This document shows positions 1,636 to 26,083 of a stretch of 64,000 bases of DNA, piece by piece; within the stretch, counting starts at the first letter, position 1, and the number at the start of each line of letters is the position of its first letter. The position numbers were made by a program, and so were the translations under genes. Source of the DNA: a virus. Taxonomy: Duplodnaviria > Heunggongvirae > Uroviricota > Caudoviricetes. The notes beneath the pieces are model-generated. The model was not told the origin of the DNA. It saw nothing but the letters and a program-made list of their open reading frames with translations, and made no database searches. The stretch is taken from the IMG/VR virus record IMGVR_UViG_3300031134_000466. One strand, written 5' to 3'.

Positions 1636-2751
1636 ATGCTTGCCCTCAATAAGGTTTTGCAGTCCTCTAAAGCTGCTATTGATTTAGCATCAATTATGGT
1701 TGGTGTCATCATCATTGGTTTGATCGGTGGTGTTATCGCTGCTACTGTTTTCGCTGTCATTCCTTGGTCTCAAGACAAAGCAGCGAAGCAGCAGCTGGAT
1801 TCTGTCCATACTGCAGAGAACGCGTTCTTTGGTTTATCCTCTGACCCAAGCCAGAATCTTGTTGGAGGCAAAAAGAACAGCTTTACGAACTCAGCTGAAT
1901 TAGCTTCAAATAATTTGCTGACTTCAAATGCTAACTACTGCGCAGTGAACACTGTTGACGGCAAAGACTACCACGCTTATGCTAAGTCTAGTTCAGGTAA
2001 AACATTCTATGCTTTGAACAGTAACAAACAAGCCCAGGTCTTCACTGGTGCCTACCCTTGTATCACTGATGCTAACGGAGTAGTTATTGTTGACCCTACC
2101 GTCGATAACGGCACAACTCCAGTGGGAACAACTCCTGGAACTGCCCCAACTACTCCTACCCCAACACCTGGTTCAGATTACGGAGTACCAGTCGGCACAG
2201 TAGTTTATTCTACTGATTTTGAAGGAGAAGCTTTCAACGCTCTTCCAGCTGGCTGGAATTACTATAATTCCAGCGGTACTAATGGCACTGGTGCGAACTT
2301 GAAAGTTAAGACAACAGACTCTAACGCAATATCCGCTAACCGGGCTCAATACTCTGGATTGTACGCAAACTTCAGTAGAATAAACGCCACAAAAGCCCTC
2401 GAAATGCGAAACGCAGCAAATAATGGTTATATAACCGGACCTACAGTAACTCTTACTCCAGGTACATATTCAGCTTCTGGTTATACGGCAAAAGGTGCAA
2501 ACGGTTCTTGGAACACCTGGACTTTGAGTGCTAAAAAAACTACTGGTGCAACAGTAGCATCGACAACATGGACTCCAGGGTTCCAATCTAACGGAGGGAC
2601 TTCAGCTTATGTTTGGGAGACCCATGGAGTAGATTTCACTGTAACAGAAGAAGGCACTTACTATCTCAACTGGACTGGAACTGATGCAGGGGAGACTACT
2701 TCTTATCTCATGATTGACGACGTGAAGATTATTAAGACCGGAACACTCTAA
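1636..2751 (+). CDS. Membrane-anchored surface protein, paralogue A: N-terminal signal anchor, G/T/P-rich linker, unknown C-terminal beta-rich domain
   Basis: N-terminal 130 aa near-identical to the ORF at 2847; hydrophobic helix IMVGVIIIGLIGGVIAATVFAVIPW followed by IPWSQDKAAKQQL (pilin-like); TPTPTPG linker. Confidence 0.7.
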   Translation: MLALNKVLQSSKAAIDLASIMVGVIIIGLIGGVIAATVFAVIPWSQDKAAKQQLDSVHTAENAFFGLSSDPSQNLVGGKKNSFTNSAELASNNLLTSNANYCAVNTVDGKDYHAYAKSSSGKTFYALNSNKQAQVFTGAYPCITDANGVVIVDPTVDNGTTPVGTTPGTAPTTPTPTPGSDYGVPVGTVVYSTDFEGEAFNALPAGWNYYNSSGTNGTGANLKVKTTDSNAISANRAQYSGLYANFSRINATKALEMRNAANNGYITGPTVTLTPGTYSASGYTAKGANGSWNTWTLSAKKTTGATVASTTWTPGFQSNGGTSAYVWETHGVDFTVTEEGTYYLNWTGTDAGETTSYLMIDDVKIIKTGTL

Positions 2752-2846
2752 GTTATATAAAAATACGATAGAGATTCCAACAGTCAACTTAGAATCGTCG
2801 CAACCAATATCTTATCAAAATTATCCCCTAAAGAAAGTACCTAACT

Positions 2847-4235
2847 ATGCTTACCCTGAATAAGGTTTTGCAGTCCTCCAAAGCTGCTATTGACTTAGCT
2901 TCCATTATGGTTGGTGTCATCATCATTGGTTTAATCGGTGGAGTCATCTCAGCAACAGTTTTTGCTGTTATCCCTTGGTCCCAGGACAAAGCAGCAAAAC
3001 AGCAGTTAGAATCAATTCACACAGCTGAGAACGCTTTCTACGGCTTTAGTGCTGATGCGTCGACTACGCTGAAAAATAAAACAAACAGCACCCGCGAACT
3101 CAGGAATACATTTGCCGATTCAGCTGAACTGGCTTCCAACGCACTCCTGACATCAAACCCTAACTATTGTGTTGTACCTACTGCTGATGGCAAAGACTAT
3201 CACGCTTATTCAAAGTCTGGTTCAGGTAAGACTTTCTATGCTTTGAACAGCAACAAGCAAGCACAAGTTTTCACAGGCGCTTTCCCCTGTGTCGTTGACG
3301 CCTCTACTGGTGTTGTGGGTGTCGACCCAGCTGTAGACAACGGAACCTCCCCTGTAGGTGTTACTCCAGGAAGCACTGGCGGAACAGGTGGCGGAACAAC
3401 TGCACCTGGCACTGGTTCTGGTGGCACTGGCGGAGGAACAACTCCTACGGCTCCTGTGAATCCTCTTGCTTTGACCATCAACTGCCCTGCAAATATCAAT
3501 AAATATGCAACCCCAACAATTGATTTTGTCGGTAAAGCCCTTCTCAGCGATGGAGTAGAAAAAACTTACACGTCTCCTTCTAACCCAATTTTTGATGTCA
3601 CCCCAGGCAAAACTTACACTATTCAGATGACTGGTACTTACAGTCAGATGAGCAGTATTAGTGTAGCCAGTGCCCCTTGCTTGGTAAGTGTCGATTCATG
3701 GGGAGATACTTCTAAGTTCAACAACATCGCAAACGGTTTTTACGGTTCTACTAACTTAGTATCAGTTCCAGATACATTACCTCCGCTTATTACTACTTTA
3801 GCAAACACCTTTTACGGGGCAACTAAGTTCAACAGTCCCAACGTATCCAAATGGGACACCAGTAACGTAACAAAGATGAACAACACTTTCCGAGAAAATA
3901 CTGTGTTCAACCAAGATTTGAGCAAGTGGAACACCAGTAACGTAACAGATATGGTTGGTATGTTCTGGTTAGCTAATGCTTTCAATAGCAACATTAGTTC
4001 ATGGGACACCAGTAAAGTGACTGATATGTTTGCAATGTTCTACAAAGTGACATCGTTCAACCAAGACATCAGTGGATGGAACACCGTCAATGTGACTCGT
4101 ATGGCATCTATGTTTGATGGGGCTAAAGCTTTCAAGCAAAACCTGAGTGGATGGAATGTAGCGAAAGTTACAAATTATTCCAGCTTCAATACGAACGGCT
4201 TGTTGGTTGCAGCTGAACTTCCTAAGTTCAAGTAA
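2847..4235 (+). CDS. Membrane-anchored surface protein, paralogue B, with C-terminal DUF285/BspA-like repeats
   Basis: Same N-terminal anchor as 1636; Gly/Thr linker; at least 5 tandem repeats FNQDLSKWNTSNVTDMxxMF matching the DUF285 consensus. Confidence 0.75.
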   Translation: MLTLNKVLQSSKAAIDLASIMVGVIIIGLIGGVISATVFAVIPWSQDKAAKQQLESIHTAENAFYGFSADASTTLKNKTNSTRELRNTFADSAELASNALLTSNPNYCVVPTADGKDYHAYSKSGSGKTFYALNSNKQAQVFTGAFPCVVDASTGVVGVDPAVDNGTSPVGVTPGSTGGTGGGTTAPGTGSGGTGGGTTPTAPVNPLALTINCPANINKYATPTIDFVGKALLSDGVEKTYTSPSNPIFDVTPGKTYTIQMTGTYSQMSSISVASAPCLVSVDSWGDTSKFNNIANGFYGSTNLVSVPDTLPPLITTLANTFYGATKFNSPNVSKWDTSNVTKMNNTFRENTVFNQDLSKWNTSNVTDMVGMFWLANAFNSNISSWDTSKVTDMFAMFYKVTSFNQDISGWNTVNVTRMASMFDGAKAFKQNLSGWNVAKVTNYSSFNTNGLLVAAELPKFK

Positions 4236-4247
4236 CACTAATTAAAT

Positions 4248-4283
4248 AGTTGAAGCCCTACTGAATTCAGTAGGGCTTCAACT
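4248..4283. terminator. Bidirectional hairpin terminator between convergent genes
   Basis: agttgaagccctactg/cagtagggcttcaact perfect palindrome. Confidence 0.6.
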
Positions 4284-4285
4284 AT

Positions 4286-5107
4286 TTAACGACCGACATA
4301 ATGCTCTTTCAAAGCACTCCAAGACATAGGGATGATTTCCAAATCAAGAGTTGACAACTCCAAAAGAGCAAGGTTGTTTTTCGAACCATCCATGTCCAAC
4401 CCGATGCTGTGAAGAGTGTACTCATTCAGTCCATCATTCAGCACAGTTTCATGGTCTGCAAAGAAATGGTAATGACCATGAAGGAATAAGTCAGGTTTTA
4501 CTCCATCAACAGCTTGACGCATCATTGCACGTGACTGGTTTGCGTAACGCATCTCTGTTGGAGACCAGATACCATGGTCTTCTCGATGAGACCCGAACAG
4601 GTTCACCCCTGCAGGGCAGTCATGCGCCAGCATGATGTCAGCATGACCATGCATCACTGTCTTGAAGACATCATCCAGAGTAATCTGCTCAGCCTTCCAC
4701 CAGGTTCTATTCTCGGTACGACCAGTGAAGTCAATGCTGTTTGCTCCTCCAAGAGAGACAAAGGTACGACCATTCCACTCCCACCTTGCTCCACGGTCAG
4801 CTACAAGAATGTGAGGGTACTCAGGGTTGTAACGCCAGCCAGGGAACTGTGACGGTTGCAGCTGGCTGATTTGTACATAGTCCTCATGATTGCCCAAAGT
4901 CACGTACAAAACTTGCCCATTTGCCGCGAGACGTTTGTTAGTCTTGTAAAGATACTTTTGCCCATTGTTACCTGGCCAGAAACCGAAATCACCCAGATGA
5001 AGGATGTGCTTAATTCCAAGCTCAGCAAAACGTGCGATTGCGATACCAGCCCAGCCAGTATTACCATGCCAATCGCCTGCTACGCCAACAATGTCAAAAG
5101 TTTCCAT
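4286..5107 (-). CDS. Calcineurin-like metallophosphoesterase (lambda-PPase-like Ser/Thr phosphatase)
   Basis: GDWHG, LGDFGF, GNHEDY and GHYH motifs. Confidence 0.8.
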   Translation of the reverse strand: METFDIVGVAGDWHGNTGWAGIAIARFAELGIKHILHLGDFGFWPGNNGQKYLYKTNKRLAANGQVLYVTLGNHEDYVQISQLQPSQFPGWRYNPEYPHILVADRGARWEWNGRTFVSLGGANSIDFTGRTENRTWWKAEQITLDDVFKTVMHGHADIMLAHDCPAGVNLFGSHREDHGIWSPTEMRYANQSRAMMRQAVDGVKPDLFLHGHYHFFADHETVLNDGLNEYTLHSIGLDMDGSKNNLALLELSTLDLEIIPMSWSALKEHYVGR

Positions 5108-5148
5108 GACACAAGTGTATCACAGATGTTTGAAGAAAAGAACAAGAC

Positions 5149-5838
5149 TTAAGAACGCACAGCGATAGGGTTCAGTAAACCGTCAGTAGTTGGTGCCACT
5201 GGAGGGTTCTGCTCATCCCGTTCGGAAGAATACTTATTGGCGTTATCCATGAAGTCTTGGAAGGTTGGTTCTGAGAAAGCCATGCATGTTTGAGTTGCTC
5301 CCCATTGACTGAAAGCAATCAAACGACCAGAAGGCATGTCAGCATCAGCTGGCCAACTCAGAACAAGTAGCTTATCTTCATGAGTGTCATTCCATTTGTC
5401 AGCAAAGTCTCGAACGAACTCATACCCATCATCAGGGTAGTTAGTGGAAGTCCAAATAACTTTGTGACCTTCCCATTCAGCACGAAGAATCTCTTCGTTA
5501 CTGTAAGGATTACCTCGTGGTTCGATGCTCTCTATAGAGTCAGCGTCAAACGGAGCGGGTGACATGTACCCGTAAGCAGGGATAATCATTGGATGGCGGG
5601 GAACTTCTTCAGTGTAGTCTTCAGGAATGGTCCCGTACTGACCGTCCTTAGGGCTGAACACGAAAGTGTCACCACACTGGGTCAGGATACCGTTAGATGC
5701 GGGCGGAACACTGATACTGCCATAAGCGCTGTTCTGCTCAAGATTAGCTGAAGGTTGACTCAACGCTCCGAAAGCAAGCATAGAAACACCTGCCAGCAGA
5801 AAGCCAGACAAGATAAGTTTAGTTCCACGGTATAGCAT
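5149..5838 (-). CDS. Secreted hypothetical protein
   Basis: N-terminal signal peptide MLYRGTKLILSGFLLAGVSMLAFGA; no recognised domain. Confidence 0.55.
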   Translation of the reverse strand: MLYRGTKLILSGFLLAGVSMLAFGALSQPSANLEQNSAYGSISVPPASNGILTQCGDTFVFSPKDGQYGTIPEDYTEEVPRHPMIIPAYGYMSPAPFDADSIESIEPRGNPYSNEEILRAEWEGHKVIWTSTNYPDDGYEFVRDFADKWNDTHEDKLLVLSWPADADMPSGRLIAFSQWGATQTCMAFSEPTFQDFMDNANKYSSERDEQNPPVAPTTDGLLNPIAVRS

Positions 5839-5887
5839 GATGACGTACTTATCGGCTTACACGTATAACCAGCCTATAATAGAGGTT

Positions 5888-6619
5888 ATGAATGATGTGG
5901 TTAGTGTCAACAGTCTGTTAGTGAAATACGAAGAGTTCACAGCAGTGAAAGATGTTTCTTTTTCCGTGGAAGCTGGTGAAGTGCGTGGTGTTCTGGGCGG
6001 AAACGGTGCAGGTAAATCCACAACCCTTCGAGTCCTTGGTGGAGTCATTAAACCCACCGCTGGTGAAATCACCATTGGAGGAGTGAGCACGAAAAGTTTC
6101 AAAGGCGCCAACAAAGCAAGAACGCTGACAGGGTATTGTCCTGACGTAGGTGGGCTTATTTCAGGAGCCACTCCTTTGGAACATGTTCGGCTTTTAGCTT
6201 CACTCCATCGAGACAAATCGCTGTATGAAAAAGGCCAAGTTGAAATCGAACGATTCAACTTAGCCGAATTTAAAAACACTCCAGTCTCTGGGTTCTCTCA
6301 CGGAATGATGAGACGACTCAGTGTTCTCCTTGCTTACATTTCAGCAGACAAATTACTCATTCTTGATGAGCCTTTCGACGGGGTTGACCCTCTTGGTGTT
6401 GACATTATTAACGCAGCTATCAGTGATGCTCGTGAAGCAGGCACAGCTGTCATTGTTTCCACACATCTTCAGAATCTTCTTGTTGATGTGTCAGACTCGG
6501 TAAACATCATGTCCAAAGGTGAACTGTTGCAGATTATCCCAGCTTCAGAGCTCATCGGTCCTGAAGGTGTGAACCGTTACACAACCATGCTGACTACCCA
6601 CACAGAGAAGAATGCATAA
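5888..6619 (+). CDS. ABC transporter ATP-binding protein
   Basis: Walker A GGNGAGKST, degenerate signature FSHGMMRRL, Walker B LLILDEPFDGVD. Start moved to the internal Met at 5888 because the ATG at 5837 would overlap the divergent gene's start. Confidence 0.75.
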   Translation: MNDVVSVNSLLVKYEEFTAVKDVSFSVEAGEVRGVLGGNGAGKSTTLRVLGGVIKPTAGEITIGGVSTKSFKGANKARTLTGYCPDVGGLISGATPLEHVRLLASLHRDKSLYEKGQVEIERFNLAEFKNTPVSGFSHGMMRRLSVLLAYISADKLLILDEPFDGVDPLGVDIINAAISDAREAGTAVIVSTHLQNLLVDVSDSVNIMSKGELLQIIPASELIGPEGVNRYTTMLTTHTEKNA

Positions 6620-8191
6620 ATGAAACTGTTCTTTGCTGGGTTGAACGACTCATTCACTTTACTTGCCTTCCGTTTCGCTAACGCAAAACCATGGATGCAA
6701 ATAGCAGGCTTACTCTTCTTGCTTGGTGCAATCGGGGCTATTGCAGCGTCGCTGCAGACAACCTCATTCATCAGAGCAATCATGACAGCAACTCTGCCCG
6801 ATGATCCGACAGCAGAGACAGCCAGAGAGTTACAACAATTCCTGTCTGTATACCTGGAAATGTATACGACAGGTAACATGGAAGTATTCGTAACAGTAGC
6901 TGTAGCTCTGCTGTTAGGTTCCATTATCTTCGTACCGTTCTCAGGGTACGTAATTCACGGTATGGTGTCCCATAGTGAAATGGTTATTGTCAAGAATGGT
7001 GACACTTATAAAATCGGTGACAGTGTTCTGTTCCAGGTTATTTCATCCTTCACCCTTATCCAGCTCACTGGGTTGACCATTGCTGCCCAGCTGATAACTT
7101 TCGACTCGGCCTACCCTTCCTACGCTGTCATTTTTGCTTGGGGTATCTGGGTGTTCATGACAATCGTTACTGCTTTAGTTTCCTGGGTTGTCGAGTTCAT
7201 TTCCCGTAAGTTCGGTCGCAAAATGAGACTGTTGTTCTTAGGCATGTTCGTAGCAGTACTTGGACTTGTTCTGCTGATTGACCCTAAGCACGGAACCACA
7301 TTGTTCGGTGGAGCTAACACCGTGTTCGACTTCTTGAATCAGTTAGCAACTGGTGATGGAAAACTGCTGGTTGCATCGTTGGTCATCATTGCAGGCTTGA
7401 CAGCTGTTGCCATTTCAGCGTTGTCTTTGATGGCGTCACATACATTACAAATTCCAGAACCTTTGACGGTTTCTAAGACCAATGAGAAGCAAATCTCTGG
7501 AAGCTCTGTTCCTTTGAGTCCATTAGTGCTACTTACTCGTTTACTCTTCCGTTACAGCACTGTAACCAAACCAGTCATGACTTCCCTTGCATTCTCTCTC
7601 ATCATTGTTCTTCTACTCAAAGGTGAAAATGCTTTAACCACAACAATGATTGTGTTACCTCTTGCTGTTGGTGTTTCTTTCGGAGCGAACATCTTTGGTC
7701 TGATTAGCGGTTCAATCAACTGGTTGTTGTCAATCAACAAATGGCGGAGCAAGATGTTGAACGCTGGAATGATTGTCATTCTTGCCTCAATCGTCATCAT
7801 CTACGCTATTGTTTACGGCGTTGGTTTAGCTATTGGAACCATCGAATGGGACCAGTTGGTAAAAGTGATTCCCGCACTTATTTCTGTGACATCAGCAACA
7901 ACAATCATCTCCATCTACCTTTCAGTGAAGAAGCCTTTACCATTCTCAGGTAAATCTCGTGAGAACCTCATTTCTTCACCCACAGCTTTGATTGGTTATG
8001 TGTTTGTGCTGCTTGTCGGTGCCGGCGGTGCTGGTAACGTTGCACTCTTTGCCCCATCCCCATCATCATGGATTATCGCAGGAACAACACTGTTCATCAG
8101 CGTCATGAGCTACTTGTTACTTTACCGTACATGGATGAATACTGAAAAGTACACTAAGCGACTGTTGAAAGAAACCATCAACGCCGGTTAA
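6620..8191 (+). CDS. ABC transporter permease (multi-TM, ABC-2-like)
   Basis: 523 aa with 10 or more hydrophobic helices; start directly abuts the ATPase stop. Confidence 0.65.
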   Translation: MKLFFAGLNDSFTLLAFRFANAKPWMQIAGLLFLLGAIGAIAASLQTTSFIRAIMTATLPDDPTAETARELQQFLSVYLEMYTTGNMEVFVTVAVALLLGSIIFVPFSGYVIHGMVSHSEMVIVKNGDTYKIGDSVLFQVISSFTLIQLTGLTIAAQLITFDSAYPSYAVIFAWGIWVFMTIVTALVSWVVEFISRKFGRKMRLLFLGMFVAVLGLVLLIDPKHGTTLFGGANTVFDFLNQLATGDGKLLVASLVIIAGLTAVAISALSLMASHTLQIPEPLTVSKTNEKQISGSSVPLSPLVLLTRLLFRYSTVTKPVMTSLAFSLIIVLLLKGENALTTTMIVLPLAVGVSFGANIFGLISGSINWLLSINKWRSKMLNAGMIVILASIVIIYAIVYGVGLAIGTIEWDQLVKVIPALISVTSATTIISIYLSVKKPLPFSGKSRENLISSPTALIGYVFVLLVGAGGAGNVALFAPSPSSWIIAGTTLFISVMSYLLLYRTWMNTEKYTKRLLKETINAG

Positions 8192-8192
8192 A

Positions 8193-8234: not shown

Positions 8235-8245
8235 TTTGTTACAGG

Positions 8246-16555: not shown

Positions 16556-17479
16556 TTAGTGAAGATGGGAGAAGTTTTTTACAGCATCAACAGAAACACC
16601 GTTGACTAACGGCTCTAACTCTTTAAGGAAAGAGTTCAGTTCACCTTCATCAGTAGCATGGAGTGTTTTTGAAGCGATTGTCAAAGCTCTACGACCAAGA
16701 AGAAGAGCTGCAAACTGATTCAAACCGTAATCACTCACTGATCTGCCCAGAAGAGTCTCATATTCTTGACGAGCAACTGTCCACAGTTCAGGACGACGCA
16801 TCCGGTGAACCAGGTGAAGATACAGATGAGCTAAATCATATTCGCGTGGAGCAGCTCTTGATTCTTCGAAGGAAGTCCAGACAACACTGTAGTCTTCTTT
16901 CATCACTAAGTTCTCTGGTGTGGCACGTCCATGACTGACAACATTGATTTCAGGTGTTGAAGAAATCATGTTGGTAACAGGCTGAATAATTACTTTGAAC
17001 AAATCCCGTAAACGGTTCTGATTCTCAGCAGTCAAATACTTGAACGAAGGAGAACCCAGCTTCTCTCCGTAGCGTAAGTAGTCATCATTGGAGCTTTCAT
17101 TCAACTGAGGATACTTCAAGCTGTTGTGGATGTAGAACAGTTCCCGTGCTGCGTGAGCTGCTTGCATGGGGTTCATGTTAGTCCCAATTGGATACAGACG
17201 TTCCCATTCCCAAGCGGACAGTACAAGAGGTAACCCTCGTGATGACCTATGGTGAACATTGTCGAATAGAGGGTTTGTACCGTAAGTGGTGTTTACTGCG
17301 AAATCAATTTCTGTTTGCAGAGGAGCTGGGTTAGTTTCTGGCCGGAGGAGCTTGACAAATACACGTTCGTTATCACTGAGAATGTGATGAGGGGAACGGT
17401 TCAAAGAGTCTAATCTCACGATACCGTAGGTGATGTAATTCTGGCTAAGAATTCGGCACACTTCGTGAACAAGATTCAT
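16556..17479 (-). CDS. Kinase-like (APH/ChoK-fold) phosphotransferase, possibly catalytically divergent
   Basis: HGRATPEN in place of the HGDxxPxN catalytic loop; DLAHLY downstream. Confidence 0.4.
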   Translation of the reverse strand: MNLVHEVCRILSQNYITYGIVRLDSLNRSPHHILSDNERVFVKLLRPETNPAPLQTEIDFAVNTTYGTNPLFDNVHHRSSRGLPLVLSAWEWERLYPIGTNMNPMQAAHAARELFYIHNSLKYPQLNESSNDDYLRYGEKLGSPSFKYLTAENQNRLRDLFKVIIQPVTNMISSTPEINVVSHGRATPENLVMKEDYSVVWTSFEESRAAPREYDLAHLYLHLVHRMRRPELWTVARQEYETLLGRSVSDYGLNQFAALLLGRRALTIASKTLHATDEGELNSFLKELEPLVNGVSVDAVKNFSHLH

Positions 17480-17597: not shown

Positions 17598-18269
17598 ATG
17601 ACTGATAAGAAAACCTACCCCTCCCCTTCACTCCTGGTCCTTGCTTTCCACGAAACCTACGGCCAGCCTGTTCGCACTGAACCTGTTTATGATGTTCCTG
17701 AGAAGCTTATGCGATCCGAACTGATCCTTGAAGAAGCAAGCGAGTTCTGGGACGCCAACAAAGCTAACGATTTAGTCGAAATGGCTGATGCTTTAGCTGA
17801 CCTTGTTTACGTAGCTTACGGTGCAGCAATCACCCATGGTGTCGACGTTGACGCTTCCTTCGGTGGACACAAAGAAACCCCTGCTGAGGTCTTGCGTGTT
17901 GTTCACCGCCGCCAGCGTCAGAAGATTCGTCCAATTCCAACATTGAACGTTCTTTCCCGCAACATGACTGCCTCAGGTTTGAACAAAACAGCTGTTGCTT
18001 ACGACAACTACGTTCGTCACACTCTTGAAGGTAACCCAGACCAGATTCGTGCGTTATTGACCACAATCATCTCCAGTGCTTACTTTGCAGCTTTTTCCTT
18101 AGGCATCGACTTGGATGACGTTCTGGAAGAAGTGCAGCGTTCCAACATGTCCAAGCTTGGTGAAGACGGCAAGCCAATCTACCGTGAAGATGGAAAGGTT
18201 CTCAAAGGACCAAACTTCTTCACACCTGACATTGCAGCTGTTTTGAAGCGTCAAGGTTGGAAAGGCTGA
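17598..18269 (+). CDS. All-alpha NTP pyrophosphohydrolase (MazG / dimeric-dUTPase-like)
   Basis: ExxE and ExxD metal-binding helices (LILEEASEF, LVEMADALADL). Confidence 0.5.
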   Translation: MTDKKTYPSPSLLVLAFHETYGQPVRTEPVYDVPEKLMRSELILEEASEFWDANKANDLVEMADALADLVYVAYGAAITHGVDVDASFGGHKETPAEVLRVVHRRQRQKIRPIPTLNVLSRNMTASGLNKTAVAYDNYVRHTLEGNPDQIRALLTTIISSAYFAAFSLGIDLDDVLEEVQRSNMSKLGEDGKPIYREDGKVLKGPNFFTPDIAAVLKRQGWKG

Positions 18270-18293
18270 AAAGCCCTGAACATTGAATTGTAA

Positions 18294-18429: not shown

Positions 18430-21147
18430 ATGGCCACCCTCATCGGCGTATCAGGAAAAATTGCGTCAGGTAAAGATTACTTGACTGACAAGCTTGTAAA
18501 CGAACTGAAACGTCTTGGTTTTACCATCGACTACACAGCCTTCGCTGCACCCCTGAAGCAGGAACTCAACGAAATCATCTCTCTGATTCGAGCTTTCCCT
18601 GAACAGGATGAACTGACTCTTTCTTTCTCCATCGCTCGTAATCTGGACATCAACTACGATGATGCTCTTCTGATTGCTACTAATCTGAGAACAGAAGTGC
18701 TTGCAGATGAAACTCTCAACGGTTACTCACGAACAGTCAAAATTCGTGAATCTCTTCAGTATCTTGGTACAGAGATTCGCAGGAAGCAGCGTCCTGAATA
18801 CTGGACTGACTTGTTCTTGAACTTCGTCAACAATTCAGAAACAGATTTCATTTTCGTTTCAGATGCACGTTTTCCTAATGAAATGGACACGGTTGTCGAC
18901 AATCAAGGTGTTGCTCTACGTCTTGACATTCCAGAAGAAGTTCTTGCAGAGCGTCGAAACAAGCGTGACGGCATCAAATACACTGATGAGCAGTTGAATC
19001 ATATCTCAGAAACTGCACTGGATGATTACACCAAATTTGACATGATGATTGGTGTGCAGTTCAACGAACGTGAAATCGTAGAGAATATCCTGAAAAAAGT
19101 TGAACGACTTCAGGAACTTCCTGCAAAAGCTTCTCGCGTCCTGAAAGCCAAAATCGCAGAGCATACACCTTCAGTGTCAGATAAGAAAGATGTTTACCCA
19201 GAGGTGAATTTACCTGAAGGCCAGTACAAAGTGTTGTCTTTGTTTGCAGGTGCAGGTGGATTAGATTTAGGTTTTGAGTTAGCTGGATTAGAAGCAGTTC
19301 ACGGTAAAGAAAAAGTGGACGCTGCTTACAAAGACAAAAAAGCATTTGACGAGCTCCGCAAAGAGAACCTCATTCACACGGTCTACGTAAATGACAACTT
19401 CAAAGATGCAATAGCTTCCTACCGTCAGAACTTTCCTGAAACGTTTATTGACGAACGAGATATCAAAAAAATCAGCAGCTTCCCTGATGCAGACCTTCTG
19501 TTAGGTGGATTCCCTTGCTTCCCTAAAGGAACAGGTGTAGCTACAGAGACAGGTTACAAAAACATTGAAGATGTCGAGAAAGGTGATTTTGTTCTCACTC
19601 ATGAAGGTCGTTACCGTGAAGTAACAGACACCATGACACGCAATGTGAACAAATCAGCCACTCTACATGCTTACGGTTCTCTTCCTTTGGTCTCAACGGT
19701 GAATCATCCTTACTGGGTGAAAGAAACTGTCGATTCTGAACCTAAATGGGTTCATGCTGAGAACATTCAGCCAGGTTGGTTTGTGTCTCATCCAATCAGC
19801 ACATTCAGTACAGATGAAGTAACCGAAAAAGAAGCCAAGTTTGCTTACTTAGCCGGCGTCTTCGCTCAGTGTGGTACAAAAACTTTGAACGACGAGCACA
19901 AGCCAAGCTATCTCACTCCTTACAATGATGAGGAGTTCCTGGCTTTGCTGGCTGAAATTGATGCTGTCTGTTCAAAAGAAGGCAAAAACGTCATCGTCCA
20001 CAGTGAACAGCTGAACAAGATGATGAAATTGTTCGGAACTACCAAATGGAACAAAGTCATTCCTGAAGAGGTCCACCAGAAACCACGAGCTTGGCAGAAA
20101 GCTTTCCTTGACGGCTTCCTGTTCCACAACTCTGACCAGGAAGTGCACAGCAAGAACTTGGCTGTTGGCGTGGCTCGAATTATTCGTAGTTTGAACCCTA
20201 CACAGGATGTTATCGTGTCCTCACCCAAATACAGTTCCTGGATTGTAACTGCAACTGACACTACCGTAGCTCATCATGATGACAACTATGTATGGGTTCC
20301 TGTGGAGCGTTTGCAAGTAAGAAACGAAATGGGAGTACTTCCTGTTTACGATATTACTGTAGCCGAAGACGAATCATTCGTAGCAGATGGATTTGTAGTT
20401 CACAACTGCCCTGGCTTCTCAGCAGCAGGTCTTCGCATGTTAGATGACCCTCGCAACTTCCTGTACCTGCATTTCGTACGAGCTGTTGTTGACGCTCAAC
20501 CAAAGATTTTCGTAGCAGAAAACGTAAAAGGTCTACTCACTCATGGTCAAGGTGAAGCTTTCAACCAGATAGTCGAAGACTTTGCAGCAGCAGGTTACAC
20601 CATCTACTACAAGCTGATGAAAGCAATTCAGCATGGTGTACCTCAGATGAGAGAGCGATTGATTATTGTTGGTGTGCGAAACGACATTGATTTTGAATAC
20701 CAGCATCCTGCTGCCACTCATGGTGAAGGTCTACTTCCATACAAAACTCAAAGAGACGCTTTCTACGATTTGAGGGACCTGAACGATGAACACTACGAAG
20801 GAGACTTCTCTTCTCGCTACCGTTCCAGAAGGTTCAAACTGGACTGGGATGTACCGTCAAAGACCATTTTGGCAACAGGGCGGCACCTGCCTTTGCACCC
20901 TGACGGAGTGCCTCAGGAGAAGCTGGAGCAGGACTTGTGGAGTTTAGACGCTGCAGACCGTAGATTCACTGTAAGAGAAGCTGCACGAATCCAGACATTC
21001 CCTGACTGGTATGATTTCGTGACAACCTCTCGCGGAACAACCAACACAGTCCTGGAGAAACAGTACCGTCAGATAGGTAACGCTGTTCCTGTCGAACTGG
21101 GACGAGTTGTTGCTGAACCTATTGTTCAGTTCCTGAAAAGTCTGTAA
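18430..21147 (+). CDS. dNMP-kinase-like P-loop domain fused to a C5-cytosine DNA methyltransferase interrupted by an intein
   Basis: GKIASGKD P-loop; MTase motif I FAGAGG, motif IV GGFP|C...N|CPGFSAAG split by the intein, motif VI ENV, motif VIII QHGVPQMRER, motif X GNAVP. Confidence 0.85.
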   Translation: MATLIGVSGKIASGKDYLTDKLVNELKRLGFTIDYTAFAAPLKQELNEIISLIRAFPEQDELTLSFSIARNLDINYDDALLIATNLRTEVLADETLNGYSRTVKIRESLQYLGTEIRRKQRPEYWTDLFLNFVNNSETDFIFVSDARFPNEMDTVVDNQGVALRLDIPEEVLAERRNKRDGIKYTDEQLNHISETALDDYTKFDMMIGVQFNEREIVENILKKVERLQELPAKASRVLKAKIAEHTPSVSDKKDVYPEVNLPEGQYKVLSLFAGAGGLDLGFELAGLEAVHGKEKVDAAYKDKKAFDELRKENLIHTVYVNDNFKDAIASYRQNFPETFIDERDIKKISSFPDADLLLGGFPCFPKGTGVATETGYKNIEDVEKGDFVLTHEGRYREVTDTMTRNVNKSATLHAYGSLPLVSTVNHPYWVKETVDSEPKWVHAENIQPGWFVSHPISTFSTDEVTEKEAKFAYLAGVFAQCGTKTLNDEHKPSYLTPYNDEEFLALLAEIDAVCSKEGKNVIVHSEQLNKMMKLFGTTKWNKVIPEEVHQKPRAWQKAFLDGFLFHNSDQEVHSKNLAVGVARIIRSLNPTQDVIVSSPKYSSWIVTATDTTVAHHDDNYVWVPVERLQVRNEMGVLPVYDITVAEDESFVADGFVVHNCPGFSAAGLRMLDDPRNFLYLHFVRAVVDAQPKIFVAENVKGLLTHGQGEAFNQIVEDFAAAGYTIYYKLMKAIQHGVPQMRERLIIVGVRNDIDFEYQHPAATHGEGLLPYKTQRDAFYDLRDLNDEHYEGDFSSRYRSRRFKLDWDVPSKTILATGRHLPLHPDGVPQEKLEQDLWSLDAADRRFTVREAARIQTFPDWYDFVTTSRGTTNTVLEKQYRQIGNAVPVELGRVVAEPIVQFLKSL
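19516..20406 (+). mobile_element. Intein (297 aa, Cys1 ... His-Asn, +1 Cys) inserted at the catalytic Cys of MTase motif IV
   Basis: N-terminal splicing block CFPKGTGVATETG...GDFVLTHEG; C-terminal VVHN followed by extein Cys; removal restores GGFPCPGFSAAG; degenerate LAGLIDADG-like blocks (YLAGVF, FLDGFLF). Confidence 0.8.
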
Positions 21148-21762
21148 TCAGTTGATGGCGTGAATGCGGTTCAACGGCCACATCACGAACTTAGGCTGGC
21201 CCAGGATGCTATCCACTGGCACGAAAGGGTCATTAGGGTGGTACCTGGAGTCAGCTGAGTTCAACCGGTTGTCGCCCAGGACAAACACTTGCCCTGCTGG
21301 GACAGTGTAAGAGAATTCTTTGTTGACATCGTTCACACCATCTTTGATGTAATTCTCATTAAGTTCCTCGCCATTGAGAAGAAGCTTCCCATCATCAGAG
21401 CAGCAAGAGATGGTGTCACCACCAACAGCTATCACACGTTTCACAAACACTGTTCCAGCAGGTTCACCCCAAGATGCTGGAGGGTTGAAAACGACAACAG
21501 TGCCACGGTCAGGAGCCTGCCTGTTGTCCAAAGCAGGAACAGATACCATGTAATCCTTGACTTGCAAAGTATTCGTCATGGAGGAAGAAGGGACAACATA
21601 GCTGTCCACGAAGAATAGATTCAGAATGATTCCTACTACCAGACCAAAGATGATCGTGTCGAGGAAACCAATTTTGTGTTTTTTCTTAGAACGAGTTACA
21701 ACCTCAGAGGAGGGGGTAATGTCGTCGTCCATCAAAATTCTTCCTATCATTACAGTAACCAT
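21148..21762 (-). CDS. lepB: Signal peptidase I (S26 family), actinobacterial-type
   Basis: SSMTNTL Ser box, VKRVIAVGGDTI box, GDNRLNSADSR box. Confidence 0.85.
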   Translation of the reverse strand: MVTVMIGRILMDDDITPSSEVVTRSKKKHKIGFLDTIIFGLVVGIILNLFFVDSYVVPSSSMTNTLQVKDYMVSVPALDNRQAPDRGTVVVFNPPASWGEPAGTVFVKRVIAVGGDTISCCSDDGKLLLNGEELNENYIKDGVNDVNKEFSYTVPAGQVFVLGDNRLNSADSRYHPNDPFVPVDSILGQPKFVMWPLNRIHAIN

Positions 21763-21881: not shown

Positions 21882-23186
21882 TTGATTTCAACACTACGAC
21901 ACTCCCAGAAATTTCAAGACAGCTTTGTTGTCTGGATTTTTGTACTTCTTTTCGCCGGTCAGGGTTTCAGGAACCTAATCGGCCTCATCTGTTACGGCAC
22001 TATCAGCCTGGTGACTGTAAGCGTAGCCGTTTGGCTCTTTTGGAATACCTGGAGTAAACGCCGAACCCCGTTTTTGCTGGGTGCTTTTGTAACTTTAGCA
22101 GCTCTGTCCACAATTTGGTCCACTTACCGTCTGGAAACATTCATAGCCAGTATCATTCTGGCGGCCACCAGCCTCATAGGACTTTTAGTTGCCTCAGCTT
22201 ACAAATGGAAAAAACTGATAGTCCTTTTAGGTTACGGACTGCAAATCTGCGTGGTCGGCAGTTTAGTCTTTGAAACAATCGTCGCCACTGTGTTTAGGAG
22301 ACCAGTTCTACCTGTCTTCATGGAATTTGTGGGCCTTACTGACATTGAGAAAAATTCTGGTGTGTTGAACTGGTCAGAGAACAATTTGTTTGCAGGTGGT
22401 CCAATTCAGGGTTTCATGGGTAACAGAAACTTGTTAGGTTTTGTTGCATTGCTTCTAATTGTTGTGTCAGTAGTGACTTTGTTGGAGAAACTCACAAACA
22501 AATGGGTGAGCCTTAGCTGGATAGCTGTAGGGTTAGGAACACATTTTCTGACAGTCTCAGCTACCATCTCTTTGGCTCTGCTGGCTGTTGTCATCATCGT
22601 TGCTGGTGCGATGTTTATACGATTTACGCCAGAAAAGTTCAGACGGATAACATCCTGGTCCTTCGTGGGACTCTGTATCGTTCTTGGTGTTGCTGCGTTG
22701 AAGAACTACGACAAACTGTTTGGTGTTTTTGACCGTGACCCGAACCTTACTAACCGCACTGAAATCTGGAAACGAGTGGCTGATCTGGCTTTGCAGAAAC
22801 CTGAAGGTTGGGGATGGGTTAGTTACTGGCCTGTATGGAAAGAGCCTTTCAACGGAATACTCACATTAGGTGGAGTGCCTGTAGCTCATGCCCATAATGC
22901 ATATTTGGATGTATGGTTCCAACTGGGTGTAGTTGGCGTCATTCTTCTAGCAGCTATGACTTTGTACATTTTAGGAAGCTCTTGGCGTTTAGTGGAACAT
23001 GCAGGAAGGAGTTCAAGCTTCTTACCTCTTGGTTTGTTCCTTCTTGGTGGTTGCTTGTTCATTCAAGCTCTTACAGAATCCCGTCTGCTACTTGAGGGTA
23101 ATTGGATGCTGTTGACTGTGTTGCTTGTGTATACGCCATCTGCTTTCCGAAAAACAAACCTGAAGGCGTTAGAGCCGATATCGTAA
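21882..23186 (+). CDS. O-antigen ligase / Wzy-like polytopic membrane protein
   Basis: At least 10 TM helices; AHNAYLDVWFQLGVVGV O-antigen-ligase family motif. Confidence 0.65.
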   Translation: MISTLRHSQKFQDSFVVWIFVLLFAGQGFRNLIGLICYGTISLVTVSVAVWLFWNTWSKRRTPFLLGAFVTLAALSTIWSTYRLETFIASIILAATSLIGLLVASAYKWKKLIVLLGYGLQICVVGSLVFETIVATVFRRPVLPVFMEFVGLTDIEKNSGVLNWSENNLFAGGPIQGFMGNRNLLGFVALLLIVVSVVTLLEKLTNKWVSLSWIAVGLGTHFLTVSATISLALLAVVIIVAGAMFIRFTPEKFRRITSWSFVGLCIVLGVAALKNYDKLFGVFDRDPNLTNRTEIWKRVADLALQKPEGWGWVSYWPVWKEPFNGILTLGGVPVAHAHNAYLDVWFQLGVVGVILLAAMTLYILGSSWRLVEHAGRSSSFLPLGLFLLGGCLFIQALTESRLLLEGNWMLLTVLLVYTPSAFRKTNLKALEPIS

Positions 23187-23188
23187 CC

Positions 23189-23380
23189 ATGACTACGAAT
23201 GACCTTGCTCCCATGCAACTACCTCCTTTTAAAGAGGGGGAAATGAAGAAAGTTGCTTTAGGGTTCCGTGAAGTTGACGGTAAAGTGGAAGTGACAGTGA
23301 CTTCACACAATATGAACGATGATATTAACGAAATTGCTGTGTTCTTGTCATTTGCGTTGGAAAAAATGCTCGAAGACTGA
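23189..23380 (+). CDS. Small hypothetical protein
   Basis: ATG directly after the stop of the previous gene. Confidence 0.35.
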   Translation: MTTNDLAPMQLPPFKEGEMKKVALGFREVDGKVEVTVTSHNMNDDINEIAVFLSFALEKMLED

Positions 23381-23433
23381 TATGGTGTGCAGCAGATAAG
23401 ATTTTTCTTGCTATCTGTTAGGAATACAAAACT

Positions 23434-24246
23434 ATGTGCAAACGCAAACCATACCCTCGTTGCAGCTACCATGCTCGCATCAAACTTGAAGCTGCAGAAA
23501 AGTCTGGTGATCTTGAACGCATCAAGCTTGCAAGAAGGAACTATTTCACTTCATTAGCTGGTATTGCTGACCTCAAAGCTCAGGGTAAAGATGCATTAGC
23601 TGCAAAATATGAGACTCGTAGAGCAAATCTCATTGCTCAAGCTGAACGTGAGACTAACCTCCGCAAGACACCCCTGGTTTTGGCGTTGGATGTAGACAAC
23701 ACCAGTGGTGACTTCACAGAATCCATTCGTAACCATGTCATGAAGACACAAGGACTTACTCCTGAACAGGCTGAAACACTTCTTCCTAGCCCTCCAACTC
23801 ACTACTCTTTCGTAGACTCAGGCTGGTTCACTGACGTTAACTCATTCCTGGATGCTTTCCATTCAGCGGAAGAGAATGGTGTTTACTCCAAGATGAAAGC
23901 TTTTGACGGAGTAAGCAAGACTCTTCGCACTTTGGTCAGTAATCGTGACGTTGAAGTTCGTGTTGTGACGGCCCGTGGTAACAGATGGAATGAAGAGACC
24001 CGTCAGTGGTTGCGTCGTCATCGTATTCCTTTCACTTCCATCACTCACACTGAGGACAAAGAGAAAGTCCCAGGTATCGATGTGTACATTGATGACTCTG
24101 ACAAGCAGATTAACACTCTGCAGAAGAACGGTAAGACAGTTATTGCGTTCGAGAATGCATACAACGCAACTGTTCCTTCTAAGTATCGTGTAAAGAAGTG
24201 GAAAGAAGTGCCGGCAGTTCTGAAACTCATCGCACAAGCCAAATAA
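23434..24246 (+). CDS. Effector-family protein: Cys/His N-terminal module fused to a HAD-superfamily phosphatase (5'-nucleotidase-like)
   Basis: N-terminus MCKRKPYPRCSYHA shared with the ARTs at 30500 and 51758; HAD motif I ALDVDNT, motif IV IDDSDKQ. Confidence 0.7.
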   Translation: MCKRKPYPRCSYHARIKLEAAEKSGDLERIKLARRNYFTSLAGIADLKAQGKDALAAKYETRRANLIAQAERETNLRKTPLVLALDVDNTSGDFTESIRNHVMKTQGLTPEQAETLLPSPPTHYSFVDSGWFTDVNSFLDAFHSAEENGVYSKMKAFDGVSKTLRTLVSNRDVEVRVVTARGNRWNEETRQWLRRHRIPFTSITHTEDKEKVPGIDVYIDDSDKQINTLQKNGKTVIAFENAYNATVPSKYRVKKWKEVPAVLKLIAQAK

Positions 24247-24391
24247 CAAACCATCAATATGGCGGTCCAGGATGCTAATTGTCCTGGGCCGCCCTTGTTT
24301 TCTCAATTAGGTGTTATGGGAACCTGTGAAAAGCTTGTTAATTACCGATACTTTTTTCAGCTACCTAACCCCCTTAGAGAGAAGAATCTGT

Positions 24392-26083
24392 ATGTCTGCT
24401 GGCAGCACGCACCCGACTATTCAAAACTACACAAAAATACGAGCAGCTTTTAGCTCCTCACAAGCCGCTATCGACTTAGCTTCCATCATGGTGGGTGTCA
24501 TCGTAATCGGACTTATTGGTGGAGTAATCTCTGCCACAGTATTCGCTATCATTCCTTGGGCACAGGACAAAGCAGCGAAAGCATCTCTCTCCTCAGTACA
24601 CACAGCAGAATCAGCATATGCTGGGTTCAGTGTTGGTGATGACGGAGAGAAGAAACAAACTTTTGGTAACTACGACGACTTGAAAGCTGAACATGGAGGT
24701 TTGCTTCAAGAATCTGAACGTCTAATAGTTTCCACCGGAACAAACAACAAAGACTGCTATGTTGCTGTCATTACCTCAGAGACAGGAAACCGTTTCTGGA
24801 TTGACAACAAGATCAGTGCACCTCGCATGTACCAAGAAGGTGACCAGTCAGAGTGTCTGAACCTTGAAGACATGTTCGGTGATGACAACGGTGGTATTGG
24901 ATACAACTCCTCCCTTGATGGTACTTACTTCGAAGGGCAAGGTTTTGCAGCTGTTGTTCACATTCGTAACAGTGCAATCAACTATGGTGTTGAACCAGAC
25001 CCAACTTGTGAGCCTACTGACCCAGCCACACAGGTAACACAGGTAAAAGCTTACTTAGACAGTGAAGAAATTGAAATTGCTGGTAGCTGGGAATACATGC
25101 AATCATCAGACGGAATTCAGACAGCAGTAGGCATCCAAACCACTAACGGATACATTGGTGCTACCACAGAGGAAGCTCAAACTTTCGCTGAAAGAGGACA
25201 AGTAATTTTCTTACCAGCTGGTTGTGCTGATTCAATCACCATCAACGTATCAGGAACATCCACTCCTCCAGGTGGTGACGACGGCGGTGGTGACCAACCT
25301 GTTGAACTATGCAGCAAGTACAATAACATGTTCACTGACGCCCAAACAACCAGTGAAACCACTGGAACTACTTTCTATGTTGACCCAAGCTGCAACACCA
25401 GCATGACTGCAATGTTCACATCCTTTGAGTCGATGTTCCAAACAATGGGACAGCCAACACTTACCGCTCGTACTGACGGTTGCTGGTCAGAACAGGGAAC
25501 TTATAAGAAAGTTGCCTGTGACCCAACAGGACAAGCTTACTACTACAGCCCAGGAAGCATGGAACAGTTCTGGACTTCAGCTAACGGAACAACAGTTGAA
25601 TTGTACCTCAACGGTTCAAGTACCCCATTCTTCTCCCAGGCATCAAACACTCCAAGTGAGTTCTACTACGAAGTTCCTCGTGAAGATAGGACAGATTCCT
25701 ACACTCAGAGCTCATACAACGCTGACGCTCCAACTGTCGGAATTGATGTCACAAGTAGCTACAGAATGACCAACTTCTACCGTGCAGCTAAACCAGCTGC
25801 AGGAACAACTTCAAACTCTTGCTTGGATGAACTTCAAGCGGGTAAGCTTCCAACCACTTACCAAGGCGAGTATGGTGTAGCTAACTGCCAAGGTGAAGAT
25901 GACTTCCGTATCTATGACTGGGACATCTCAGGTAACTTCGGTAATGCCGATGAAGCAACTTACGAAAACATCAAAACAGTCAGTGAACAAGGCGGTATGG
26001 TCAAGTTCACAACAACAGAAGGTAAAACTTCAACCATCCAGCTGAACCCAGGAGCTTTGAACCCAGAACCACAAGCTTCATAA
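24392..26083 (+). CDS. Membrane-anchored surface protein, paralogue C, with a divergent C-terminal domain
   Basis: AIDLASIMVGVIVIGLIGGVISATVFAIIPWAQDKAAK matches the N-terminus of 1636 and 2847; GAGAGAAG SD before the Met at 24392. Confidence 0.7.
   Translation: MSAGSTHPTIQNYTKIRAAFSSSQAAIDLASIMVGVIVIGLIGGVISATVFAIIPWAQDKAAKASLSSVHTAESAYAGFSVGDDGEKKQTFGNYDDLKAEHGGLLQESERLIVSTGTNNKDCYVAVITSETGNRFWIDNKISAPRMYQEGDQSECLNLEDMFGDDNGGIGYNSSLDGTYFEGQGFAAVVHIRNSAINYGVEPDPTCEPTDPATQVTQVKAYLDSEEIEIAGSWEYMQSSDGIQTAVGIQTTNGYIGATTEEAQTFAERGQVIFLPAGCADSITINVSGTSTPPGGDDGGGDQPVELCSKYNNMFTDAQTTSETTGTTFYVDPSCNTSMTAMFTSFESMFQTMGQPTLTARTDGCWSEQGTYKKVACDPTGQAYYYSPGSMEQFWTSANGTTVELYLNGSSTPFFSQASNTPSEFYYEVPREDRTDSYTQSSYNADAPTVGIDVTSSYRMTNFYRAAKPAAGTTSNSCLDELQAGKLPTTYQGEYGVANCQGEDDFRIYDWDISGNFGNADEATYENIKTVSEQGGMVKFTTTEGKTSTIQLNPGALNPEPQAS

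Follow-up and report, generated by a model that had tools for sequence, protein, structure and literature searches.

Putative modular type IV pilins with diversified heads in a giant phage-like element

Three genes with a common N-terminus

The DNA analysed here is a stretch of 64,000 nucleotides, hereafter the window, from the IMG/VR virus record IMGVR_UViG_3300031134_000466 (Caudoviricetes). It carries three genes, here called A, B and C, whose products have a near-identical N-terminus and end in different C-terminal heads. A preliminary description of the sequence had placed the three open reading frames (ORFs) at positions 1636, 2847 and 24392, where they are indeed found. Their parts are listed below (nt, nucleotides; aa, amino acids).

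1636..2751, + strand: gene A, 371 aa, putative modular type IV pilin
nt 1636-1674, + strand: leader of A, 13 aa, MLALNKVLQSSKA
nt 1675-1788, + strand: conserved alpha1 of A, AIDLAS...IPWSQDKAAK
up to ~aa 152 (nt ~2091), + strand: predicted pilin module of A, with Cys102 and Cys142
nt ~2092-2205, + strand: T/P-rich linker of A
nt ~2206-2748, + strand: head of A, predicted to be beta-rich and jelly-roll-like
2847..4235, + strand: gene B, 462 aa by translation, putative modular type IV pilin
nt 2847-~3326, + strand: leader (13 aa, same as in A) and predicted pilin module of B
nt ~3327-3461, + strand: G/T/P linker of B
nt ~3462-4232, + strand: head of B, DUF285/PARCEL repeats
24392..26083, + strand: gene C, 563 aa from the ATG, putative modular type IV pilin
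nt 24392-24466, + strand: leader of C, 25 aa, ending in SSSQA
nt 24467-~24856, + strand: predicted pilin module of C
nt ~24857-26080, + strand: head of C, ~410 aa, Cys-rich, without a family match

Within the window, tblastn aligns A and B at 77% identity over residues 1-165 (E 3e-69), with 93% in the first 60 residues, and A and C at 49% over residues 4-128 (E 4e-27), with 75% in the first 57-60. Judged from these alignments, the similarity among the three is far above chance. There is no fourth copy in the 64-kb window, the next best tblastn match having an E value of 0.13. The heads, which lie downstream of the linker, are mutually unrelated, as had been proposed, and the likeness of A and B over the next 100 or so residues is borne out as well. 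The N-terminus of about 60 residues said to be shared by all three is real, but the region in common with C is longer and covers the whole pilin module. A G/T/P linker is present in A and B, the two proteins for which it is named. The mechanical ORF of C opens at a GTG at 24311, and an ATG follows at 24392. Since a CCCCT..GAAAG/GAGAG stretch lies just 5' of the ATG in all three genes, the true start of C is taken to be the ATG at 24392, as originally claimed.

The constant module resembles a type IV pilin

A and B begin with MLxLNKVLQSSKA↓AIDLASIMVGVIIIGLIGGVIxATVFAVIPW, where the arrow marks the predicted cleavage site, and C has a 25-aa leader ending in QA↓. All three carry a class III signal, that is, a hydrophilic leader ending in Gly or Ala followed by at least 21 mostly hydrophobic residues; the published definition allows either residue at the end of the leader (PMC8179133). 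A model of residues 1-165 of A, computed from a 122-sequence alignment (predicted local distance difference test, pLDDT, 83), consists of a 67-residue N-terminal helix and a beta-sheet, the predicted equivalent of the 'lollipop' fold in which a ~50-residue helix is packed on an antiparallel beta-sheet. The list of structural matches for this constant part includes ComP, the S. oneidensis pilin, the K122-4 pilin, GspK and PilX as well as PilV, EpsG, S. sanguinis PilA and others. The GspG model (TIGR01710) gives weak N-terminal matches to A, B and C (E 0.002-0.02) over the first 45 residues. Because a leader ending in Gly or Ala fits the accepted definition, the three proteins can be read as bona fide, though divergent, modular type IV pilins. 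They belong to a pilin family of Microbacteriaceae type, described below. The explanation as a whole, including the mechanism set out further on, is reasonably likely in our judgement.

Heads of diverse binding-type families

Each of A, B and C combines a predicted pilin module and a linker with a module foreign to pilus biology. The head of B matches PF03382 (DUF285) in Pfam with an E value of 1.3e-54 and 183.5 bits against a cut-off of 25, and TIGR02167 (PARCEL repeat) in NCBIfam with an E value of 2.4e-30 and five repeat matches. Its tandem repeats of ~25 residues thus score above cut-off and place it in the DUF285/BspA type, as the preliminary description had it. The Firmicute affinity that was read from these repeats is rejected: the homologues and the pilus machinery are of Microbacteriaceae type, that is, actinobacterial, and a neighbouring gene encodes an actinobacterial LAXTG sortase signal. 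The head of A has only a sub-threshold choice-of-anchor-J match; searched alone against a word index it found nothing, and it gives no BLAST alignment with the pilins headed by carbohydrate-binding modules (CBMs) at a locus of a 637-kb contig (L015, below). The head of C has no match in Pfam, PHROG or the PDB. C does have full-length orthologues at 40% identity, one of them in conserved synteny on a contig of 858,429 bp.

Among 47 modular pilins of related elements the heads fall into 11 clusters, the cluster of the B head having 7 members. The Pfam names assigned to them are DUF285 (six), CBM_4_9 (six), He_PIG (four), RCC1 propeller (three) and Sortilin/BNR (one). By these assignments, the heads of the family are of carbohydrate- or protein-binding type.

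A pilin family of Microbacteriaceae

Residues 1-159 of A retrieved 223 homologues, most of them 160-200 aa long, free of Pfam domains and labelled 'pseudopilin PulG' by the JGI annotation. Their leader is long and hydrophilic (25 aa in 85 of the 120 examined) and is followed by an invariant AIDLASIMVG(I/V)I(V/I)IGLIGGVIAATVFAVIPWAQD and then by a helix-forming AAKQQLDS...A..A. A Gly directly precedes AIDLAS in 119 of these 120 database homologues; the one that differs, P0049, shares the short leader of A and B. The modular members encoded by the giant elements described below have [K/R]A at this place in 40 cases out of 41, and with leaders ending in ..SSKA↓ (A, B) and ..SSQA↓ (C) the window proteins belong to this modular (A↓) class. 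The modular members, including A, B and C, also have a Cys pair in the pilin module that is missing from the short pilins. An exhaustive profile search raised the family to 718 representatives, and most of the best 150 have 300-900 aa and begin with the pilin module.

Short and modular pilins are near-invariant over ~30-45 N-terminal residues and otherwise only ~25-45% identical. Such a pattern is what would be expected of subunits that pack together in one filament core, rather than of a mere membrane anchor, and appears to be the strongest indirect argument for co-polymerisation over anchoring.

A scan of GTDB (185,579 species genomes, one per species) found the motif only in Microbacteriaceae and on one 1.5-kb contig labelled Armatimonadota. 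The carriers are Leifsonia sp. Leaf264, with eight loci, Frigoribacterium, Curtobacterium and freshwater metagenome-assembled genomes (MAGs), with G+C contents of 59-66%. In a Leifsonia locus (L013) the gene order is T2SSE, T2SSE, T2SSF, A24-like peptidase and pilin; in a MAG locus (L002) two T2SSE genes and T2SSF lie upstream of the pilin, with no A24-like match detected. The association of the family with T2SSE, T2SSF and A24-like genes is seen at these two loci and at two loci of the giant contigs (L015 and L064). The short cellular pilins (153-213 aa) have leaders ending in G↓, and the modular ones (352-1070 aa), which are scattered round the chromosome, have leaders mostly ending in RA↓; two long exceptions of 345 and 392 aa end in G↓.

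Two further contigs carry extended pilins of the family, P0006 and P0003, on a 21-kb Logan contig (L017, G+C 52%) and a 5.4-kb JGI contig (L020, G+C 57%). These proteins have 256-275 aa, a G↓ leader and a Cys-rich C-terminal extension, and their genes carry an upstream CCGATAAC-CCCTTTGAC motif. Their surroundings show almost no Pfam matches and have nothing else in common with the window. They may represent other mobile elements or phages with this pilin family.

Giant relatives and their pilus loci

In a metagenome scan, a protein 99% identical to A was found on a JGI contig of 788,683 bp, Ga0308164_10000007 (IMG 3300031413); the window is 94-96% identical in DNA and syntenic to part of it. 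The one difference seen is an insertion of 1.4 kb in the contig right after B (L021, 12603-14022; window position ~4236), which is missing from the window. It encodes a fourth tandem paralogue of 425 aa, with a He_PIG-type and CBM-like head, lies exactly between B and a metallophosphatase gene, and represents a strain-level gain or loss in the family. About 160 kb (~20%) of the 788-kb contig was read. The part read encodes at least 18 modular pilins of the A class, in arrays of up to seven. The three paralogues first described are therefore all that the window holds, but members of a larger family.

At 145-166 kb of this contig (L064) lie genes for two T2SSE ATPases (438 and 716 aa), a T2SSF protein, a 267-aa protein that is 60% identical to the A24-like peptidase of L015 on the 637-kb contig, and at least five short pilins of the G class. 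Four more proteins at this locus, one of 844 aa, have other pilin-like N-termini and are read as putative minor pilins. At both L064 and L015, T2SSE and T2SSF genes 48-60% identical to the cellular ones are followed by arrays of short pilins and by such putative minor pilins. A search for a prepilin peptidase elsewhere in the genome, which had been proposed as a check on the pilin-like character of the proteins, thus leads to an A24-like gene on the 788-kb relative. L064 further contains a DUF4379 homing endonuclease gene (6159-7877, 572 aa), inserted downstream of T2SSF and two genes ahead of the peptidase-like one. In the cellular loci L013 and L002, T2SSF and the pilus gene that follows it lie too close together to hold such a gene.

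The same pilin pattern is found on contigs of 878,612, 883,042, 637,770 and 858,429 bp, the last being Ga0540651_0000001 (IMG 3300055092). The first two, Ga0308164_10000004 and Ga0308161_1000006, are 97-98% identical over the region compared, and base 1 of one falls 5.7 kb into a locus located at ~671 kb of the other (L054 versus L053). Different start points and near-equal lengths in two independent assemblies suggest complete genomes that are circular or circularly permuted.

A probable giant phage

The window encodes a SNF2 helicase, a RecE/YqaJ-RNase T exonuclease, a ribonucleotide reductase (RNR), two dCMP deaminases, a MazG/PRA-PH protein, a T4-type dNMP kinase fused via an intein to a C5 methylase, NT5C, a PARP-WGR protein, three ADP-ribosyltransferases, Hsp70, NucS, PNKP, two RNA ligases and two NAD synthases. 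Searches for translation genes, tRNAs and Rfam RNAs in it were negative. The best phage matches of its proteins are in actinophages of Streptomyces, Gordonia, Rhodococcus and Propionibacterium. The 788-kb contig was sampled through 100 non-pilin ORFs from eight loci, for which 25 of 41 Pfam and 25 of 60 PHROG families are listed. The sample includes rIIA (E 2e-64), two copies of rIIB, the T7 gp5.9 RecBCD inhibitor, three homing endonucleases, three more ADP-ribosyltransferases, a class Ib RNR, an NAD ligase and a PurZ-like enzyme; no ribosomal-protein or aminoacyl-tRNA synthetase family is among those listed. At ~655-668 kb of the contig (L055 7570-20475; also L056), ten tRNA genes lie within 13 kb with small ORFs between them. 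They comprise four different Leu anticodons and a CTA anticodon (an amber suppressor, 'Pyl' according to ARAGORN), and such an array with a suppressor is typical of huge phages.

On this gene content, a giant phage is the probable source of the window, and we hold this view with good confidence. Three findings count against it. The ~224 kb examined yielded no gene for a capsid, terminase, portal or tail. A subset of IMG/VR scanned with the pilin alignment, the RecE-like exonuclease and the PARP protein contained no relatives. At 0.79-0.88 Mb, the genomes would be larger than the 735-kb record for a phage (PMC13282480), which calls for caution. Because no virion gene was seen and the elements were absent from the IMG/VR subset scanned, the phage identity is one that we infer.

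The same two absences can be turned in favour of a cellular origin, in which A, B and C would be ordinary minor pilins and the contigs of 0.64-0.88 Mb would belong to a small-genome bacterium, such as an episymbiont, or to a giant plasmid. The elements have a complete-looking pilus locus, and genome-sized contigs recur across assemblies, those of 878 and 883 kb being circular permutations. Saccharibacteria of similar genome size also use pilins with jelly-roll or RCC1 heads and non-canonical signals as adhesins (PMC11623550). However, a cell is hard to reconcile with ~224 kb in which no ribosomal-protein or synthetase family is among those listed, and with the presence of rIIA, rIIB, T7 gp5.9, homing endonucleases, a RecE-like exonuclease, a dNMP kinase, PNKP with RNA ligases and several ADP-ribosyltransferases, to which the phage-style tRNA array is added. 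Moreover, the GTDB scan yielded the motif only in high-G+C Microbacteriaceae and on the Armatimonadota-labelled contig, and no low-G+C genome with a repeated pilin motif. We therefore regard a cellular origin as unlikely. Saccharibacteria were rejected as the source, given that the GTDB scan gave no such genome and that phage markers are present.

Pilin or membrane anchor

Several results weigh against the assignment of A, B and C to the pilins. The prepilin models PF07963 (Pfam) and TIGR02532 (NCBIfam) give no match to any of the three at E<=1, an outcome that the preliminary description had named as speaking against a pilin-like N-terminus. Glu5 is missing: in the hhalign register, Asp stands at +3 (or +2) and Ser at the position equivalent to Glu5. 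The GspG matches score 15-18 bits, well short of the equivalog cut-off of 88.85. In Foldseek searches of the PDB, pilins rank at the top without significance (E 0.3-0.6), and a sequence-profile search of the PDB gave chance matches only. Profile comparison with PulG and PilA gave a low probability and a register one residue off. The full-length model of A is poor (pLDDT 48), so that the fold of its head is not established by it. No pilus machinery was found inside the 64-kb window by family scans, the link resting on the 94-96% identical relative, and the A24-like protein scores 22.3 bits against Pfam Peptidase_A24, below the cut-off of 26.5.

The silence of the prepilin models appears to reflect the divergent signature [G/A]↓AIDLAS, with Asp at +3 and no Glu5, rather than the absence of pilins. 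The preliminary reading of a noncanonical pilin-like N-terminus with diversified heads gains from the weak GspG matches and from the homologues that adjoin T2SSE, T2SSF and A24-like genes. Its 'constant anchor' holds in so far as the helix is predicted to insert into the membrane, but the constant part is better read as a putative polymerisation module and so as more than an anchor.

If the constant part were nothing else, A, B and C would be uncleaved signal-anchor proteins, used for surface display or as dominant-negative decoys that jam the prepilin peptidase or platform of the host. The missing Glu5 and the silent prepilin models would fit such proteins, as would the Ala before AIDLAS in all three window copies and in 40 of the 41 modular copies of giant elements, against Gly in 119 of 120 homologues. 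The TM7x pilins PilX1 and PilX2 likewise lack a predicted PilD signal (PMC11623550). However, the [K/R]A class also occurs in Leifsonia chromosomes beside a normal pilus operon, which makes it a standing feature of the family and not a viral poison; Ala at -1 as a phage-specific 'poison' was rejected on this ground. A class III leader may in any case end in Ala, as noted above. Strom and Lory reportedly found in 1991 that Ala is the only -1 substitution tolerated by PilD of P. aeruginosa. Some 30 near-invariant helix residues and a pilin-fold globular module would be needless for a plain anchor, and a membrane-tethered head of 200-400 aa would be barely exposed through a thick Gram-positive wall. 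Plain anchoring is thus rather improbable.

Regulation and neighbourhood of the pilin genes

The following elements lie upstream of A and C.

1535..1568, + strand: inverted repeat GGATAAGGGTCC...GGACCCTTATCC, between the SNF2 helicase gene and A, read from the sequence
1588..1594, + strand: CCGATAA, promoter-like motif 48 nt upstream of the ATG of A
24261..24293, + strand: G+C-rich inverted repeat GGCGGTCCAGGA...TCCTGGGCCGCC, then CTTGTTTTCT, between the NT5C gene and C, read from the sequence
24345..24351, + strand: CCGATAC, variant of the motif 47 nt upstream of the ATG of C

In the window and the loci of the 788-kb contig, CCGATA[AC] occurs within 100 nt upstream of 16 of 27 pilin genes and 15 of 192 other genes (Fisher p 2e-9). 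Its spacing to the start codon is 47-65 nt, and pilin genes of both classes carry it. The shared motif hints at co-regulation of the pilin genes, and may act as a -10-like promoter element or as the site of a regulator that defines a regulon. Further copies occur at window positions 5849(-), 17528(-), 29981(-), 32907(+) and 34267(+), at L015, L017, L020, L023, L024 and L064, and before a few non-pilin genes, e.g. a 307-aa kinase-like ORF at 16556-17479. The hairpins 5' of A and of C are terminator-like, so that A and C are each probably transcribed from a start of their own.

Upstream of C, a type I signal peptidase S26 gene (21148-21762, -, E 1e-36) is followed by a gene for a Wzy_C 'O-antigen ligase' membrane protein (21882-23186, +, E 7e-17) and by NT5C. 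The 858-kb relative keeps the order S26, Wzy_C, NT5C and C orthologue, with an identity of only 40% in C. S26 was rejected as the enzyme that processes the pilins, since they would be cut on the N-terminal side of the hydrophobic stretch and a type I peptidase would have to cut on the other. The pilin O-glycosyltransferases PilO and PglL belong to Wzy_C. As the linkers of A and B are also rich in Thr, Ser and Pro, glycosylation of the pilins is a possibility; a PDB search with the Wzy_C protein found nothing.

The kinase-methylase fusion of the window is a 905-aa ORF (18430-21147, +) made up of a T4-type dNMP kinase, a Hint/intein domain and a C5 cytosine DNA methylase. On the 858-kb relative the kinase is a separate protein of 223 aa with no adjoining methylase. 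A PRA-PH/MazG-like pyrophosphatase is encoded at 17598-18269 (+), and the 788-kb relative has a PurZ-like adenylosuccinate-synthetase homologue (phrog_1211, E 5e-65). The pairing of MazG-like and PurZ proteins is known from phages that replace adenine by 2-aminoadenine, and a modified genome of this type is possible. The PARP catalytic and WGR protein and the three ADP-ribosyltransferases of exoenzyme or toxin type (26372-27676, 28539-29579, 30500-31465 and 51758-52729), together with the three more in the loci of the relative, form an unusually rich ADP-ribosylation toolkit.

The sortase signal mentioned above belongs to a 470-aa protein (41294-42706, +) with a Sec signal (..ASPALA↓DEAAP), acidic Pro/Glu-rich repeats and a C-terminus consisting of LAYTG, a transmembrane segment and an Arg-rich tail. 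By these features it is a predicted actinobacterial sortase-E (LAXTG) substrate, anchored in the cell wall as a surface protein. Such a protein would give the element a second means of remodelling the host surface, and it hints at a Gram-positive actinobacterial host.

Proposed mechanism and purpose

In the mechanism that we propose, the N-terminal hydrophobic helix (alpha1N) would insert each protein into the cytoplasmic membrane, and an A24-type prepilin peptidase would cut off the hydrophilic leader at [K/R/Q]A↓AIDLAS. A machine of PilB/PilC type would then extract the subunit and polymerise it, via the invariant alpha1, with short 'G↓AIDLAS' major pilins. The pilus would show the heads (jelly-roll/CBM-like, DUF285 or novel) at its tip or along its surface, and the infected cell would be equipped with virus-encoded pili carrying a diversified repertoire of adhesins. 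Leader cleavage, incorporation into a filament, ligand binding and benefit to the virus are steps that we infer. The likeliest benefit is that infected cells adhere to glycans, particles or neighbouring hosts. Tethering to surfaces or new hosts may follow from the binding-type heads and from the adhesin pilins of Saccharibacteria. The full picture, of a phage of ~0.8-0.9 Mb of Microbacteriaceae-like actinobacteria that has a complete host-derived pilus system and ~20 rapidly diversifying modular pilins, three of them in the window, and tethers infected cells, is tentative, and we hold it with some doubt. If it is true, tethering to glycans or uninfected hosts would aid the transmission of a giant virion that diffuses poorly.

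The main alternative purpose is the exclusion of pilus-dependent competitors. Phage-encoded pilins would replace or cap host subunits, mask the receptor and so block superinfection by pilus-binding phages. Phage FimU and PilA homologues are known to enter type IV pili and to block tip-binding phages (PMC12952977), and both the diversity of the heads and the strain-level gain and loss of paralogues would fit an arms race. But one or a few pilins suffice for this, not ~20 with heads of carbohydrate-binding type and a private PilB/PilT/PilC/PilD set, and pilus-dependent phages of these hosts are not known. We consider receptor masking very improbable as an explanation; it concerns purpose only and is compatible with a pilin mechanism.

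That the proteins are tail fibres or receptor-binding proteins of the virion, which the preliminary description had raised as the competing reading, finds no support: A has no DNA or protein match in 50,697 phage records, PHROG matches neither A nor C and B through DUF285 only, no significant fold match was found in the viral BFVD, the pilin genes are flanked by genes of nucleotide metabolism, and the proteins have a transmembrane helix at the N-terminus.

Comparison with known systems

Modular pilins and single phage-borne pilins are both already known. A search of the literature brought up neither a pilus machine encoded by a phage nor an expanded family of phage pilins, and T2SSF matches in the 50,697 phage records were only mislabelled bacterial contigs or unannotated fragments. 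If the pilin reading holds, it would define an actinobacterial pilin family ([G/A]↓AIDLASIMVG, Asp at +3) that the Pfam and NCBIfam prepilin models miss, in which two leader classes separate short pilins from modular adhesin pilins, and surveys of pili in Actinobacteria would undercount such systems. If the element is a phage, it would be the first virus found with a whole type IV pilus machine and an expanded adhesin-pilin repertoire, well beyond the single pilin decoys known so far. The idea of giant phages re-engineering the adhesion or motility of the host cell would become testable, and the apparently complete, circularly permuted genomes of 0.79-0.88 Mb would extend the size range of phages.

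With the pseudopilin GspG/PulG of the type II secretion system (TIGR01710) the proteins have a weak N-terminal likeness and the fold class in common. The present family differs in its monoderm context, a second T2SSE ATPase gene of PilT type and its pilin arrays, which together point to a pilus rather than a secretion pseudopilus. The head of B is a strong member of the DUF285/BspA-like/PARCEL surface proteins, such as lipoproteins of Mycoplasma and Listeria; those are lipoprotein- or wall-anchored, whereas in B the repeat domain is grafted on a putative pilin module.

Another comparable system is the uncharacterised chromosomal pilus operon of Microbacteriaceae (Leifsonia sp. Leaf264, Frigoribacterium, Curtobacterium and freshwater MAGs), which has the same pilin N-terminus, the same operon order and the same two leader classes, G↓ for short and RA↓ for modular pilins. 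Its machinery is 48-60% identical to that of the giant elements, and the peptidase-like protein 26-31%. Its carriers are high-G+C (59-66%) cells, in contrast to a phage-like element with 45% G+C, and the sets of heads differ.

Known modular pilins include S. sanguinis PilB, with a vWA module, and PilC, with a lectin module, and the more than 1,200 catalogued by Raynaud et al. 2021 (PMC8179133; PMC9934059). In architecture they agree with A, B and C: a class III signal precedes a small pilin module, to which a short flexible linker joins a ligand-binding module; the host is likewise monoderm, and the heads include lectin and CBM-like folds. They are defined by IPR012902/GFxxxE, Glu5 and a leader ending in Gly, whereas the present proteins have [G/A]↓AIDLASIMVG and Asp at +3, are invisible to PF07963 and TIGR02532, have a hydrophobic tract ~7 residues longer and occur in ~20 copies per genome. 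The catalogued proteins are encoded in bacterial chromosomes, and A, B and C in a phage-like element.

PilX1 (jelly-roll) and PilX2 (RCC1 beta-propeller) of the Saccharibacterium TM7x, proposed adhesins for actinobacterial cell-wall glycans (PMC11623550), are modular, have non-canonical signals and carry head types also found in the present family. They are chromosomal, belong to an episymbiont and occur one per pilus system; their likeness to A, B and C is one of architecture, with no sequence relationship shown.

P-FimU and the phage PilA-like proteins (Sztanko et al., Cell Rep 2026, PMC12952977) are also virus-encoded, host-like subunits whose diversity suggests conflict. They are single and non-modular, depend wholly on the machinery of Gram-negative hosts and act in exclusion. 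Here, by contrast, many putative adhesin-headed modular pilins are found in an actinobacterial setting, and a close relative of the element has PilB/PilT/PilC/PilD-like genes of its own together with predicted major and minor pilins.

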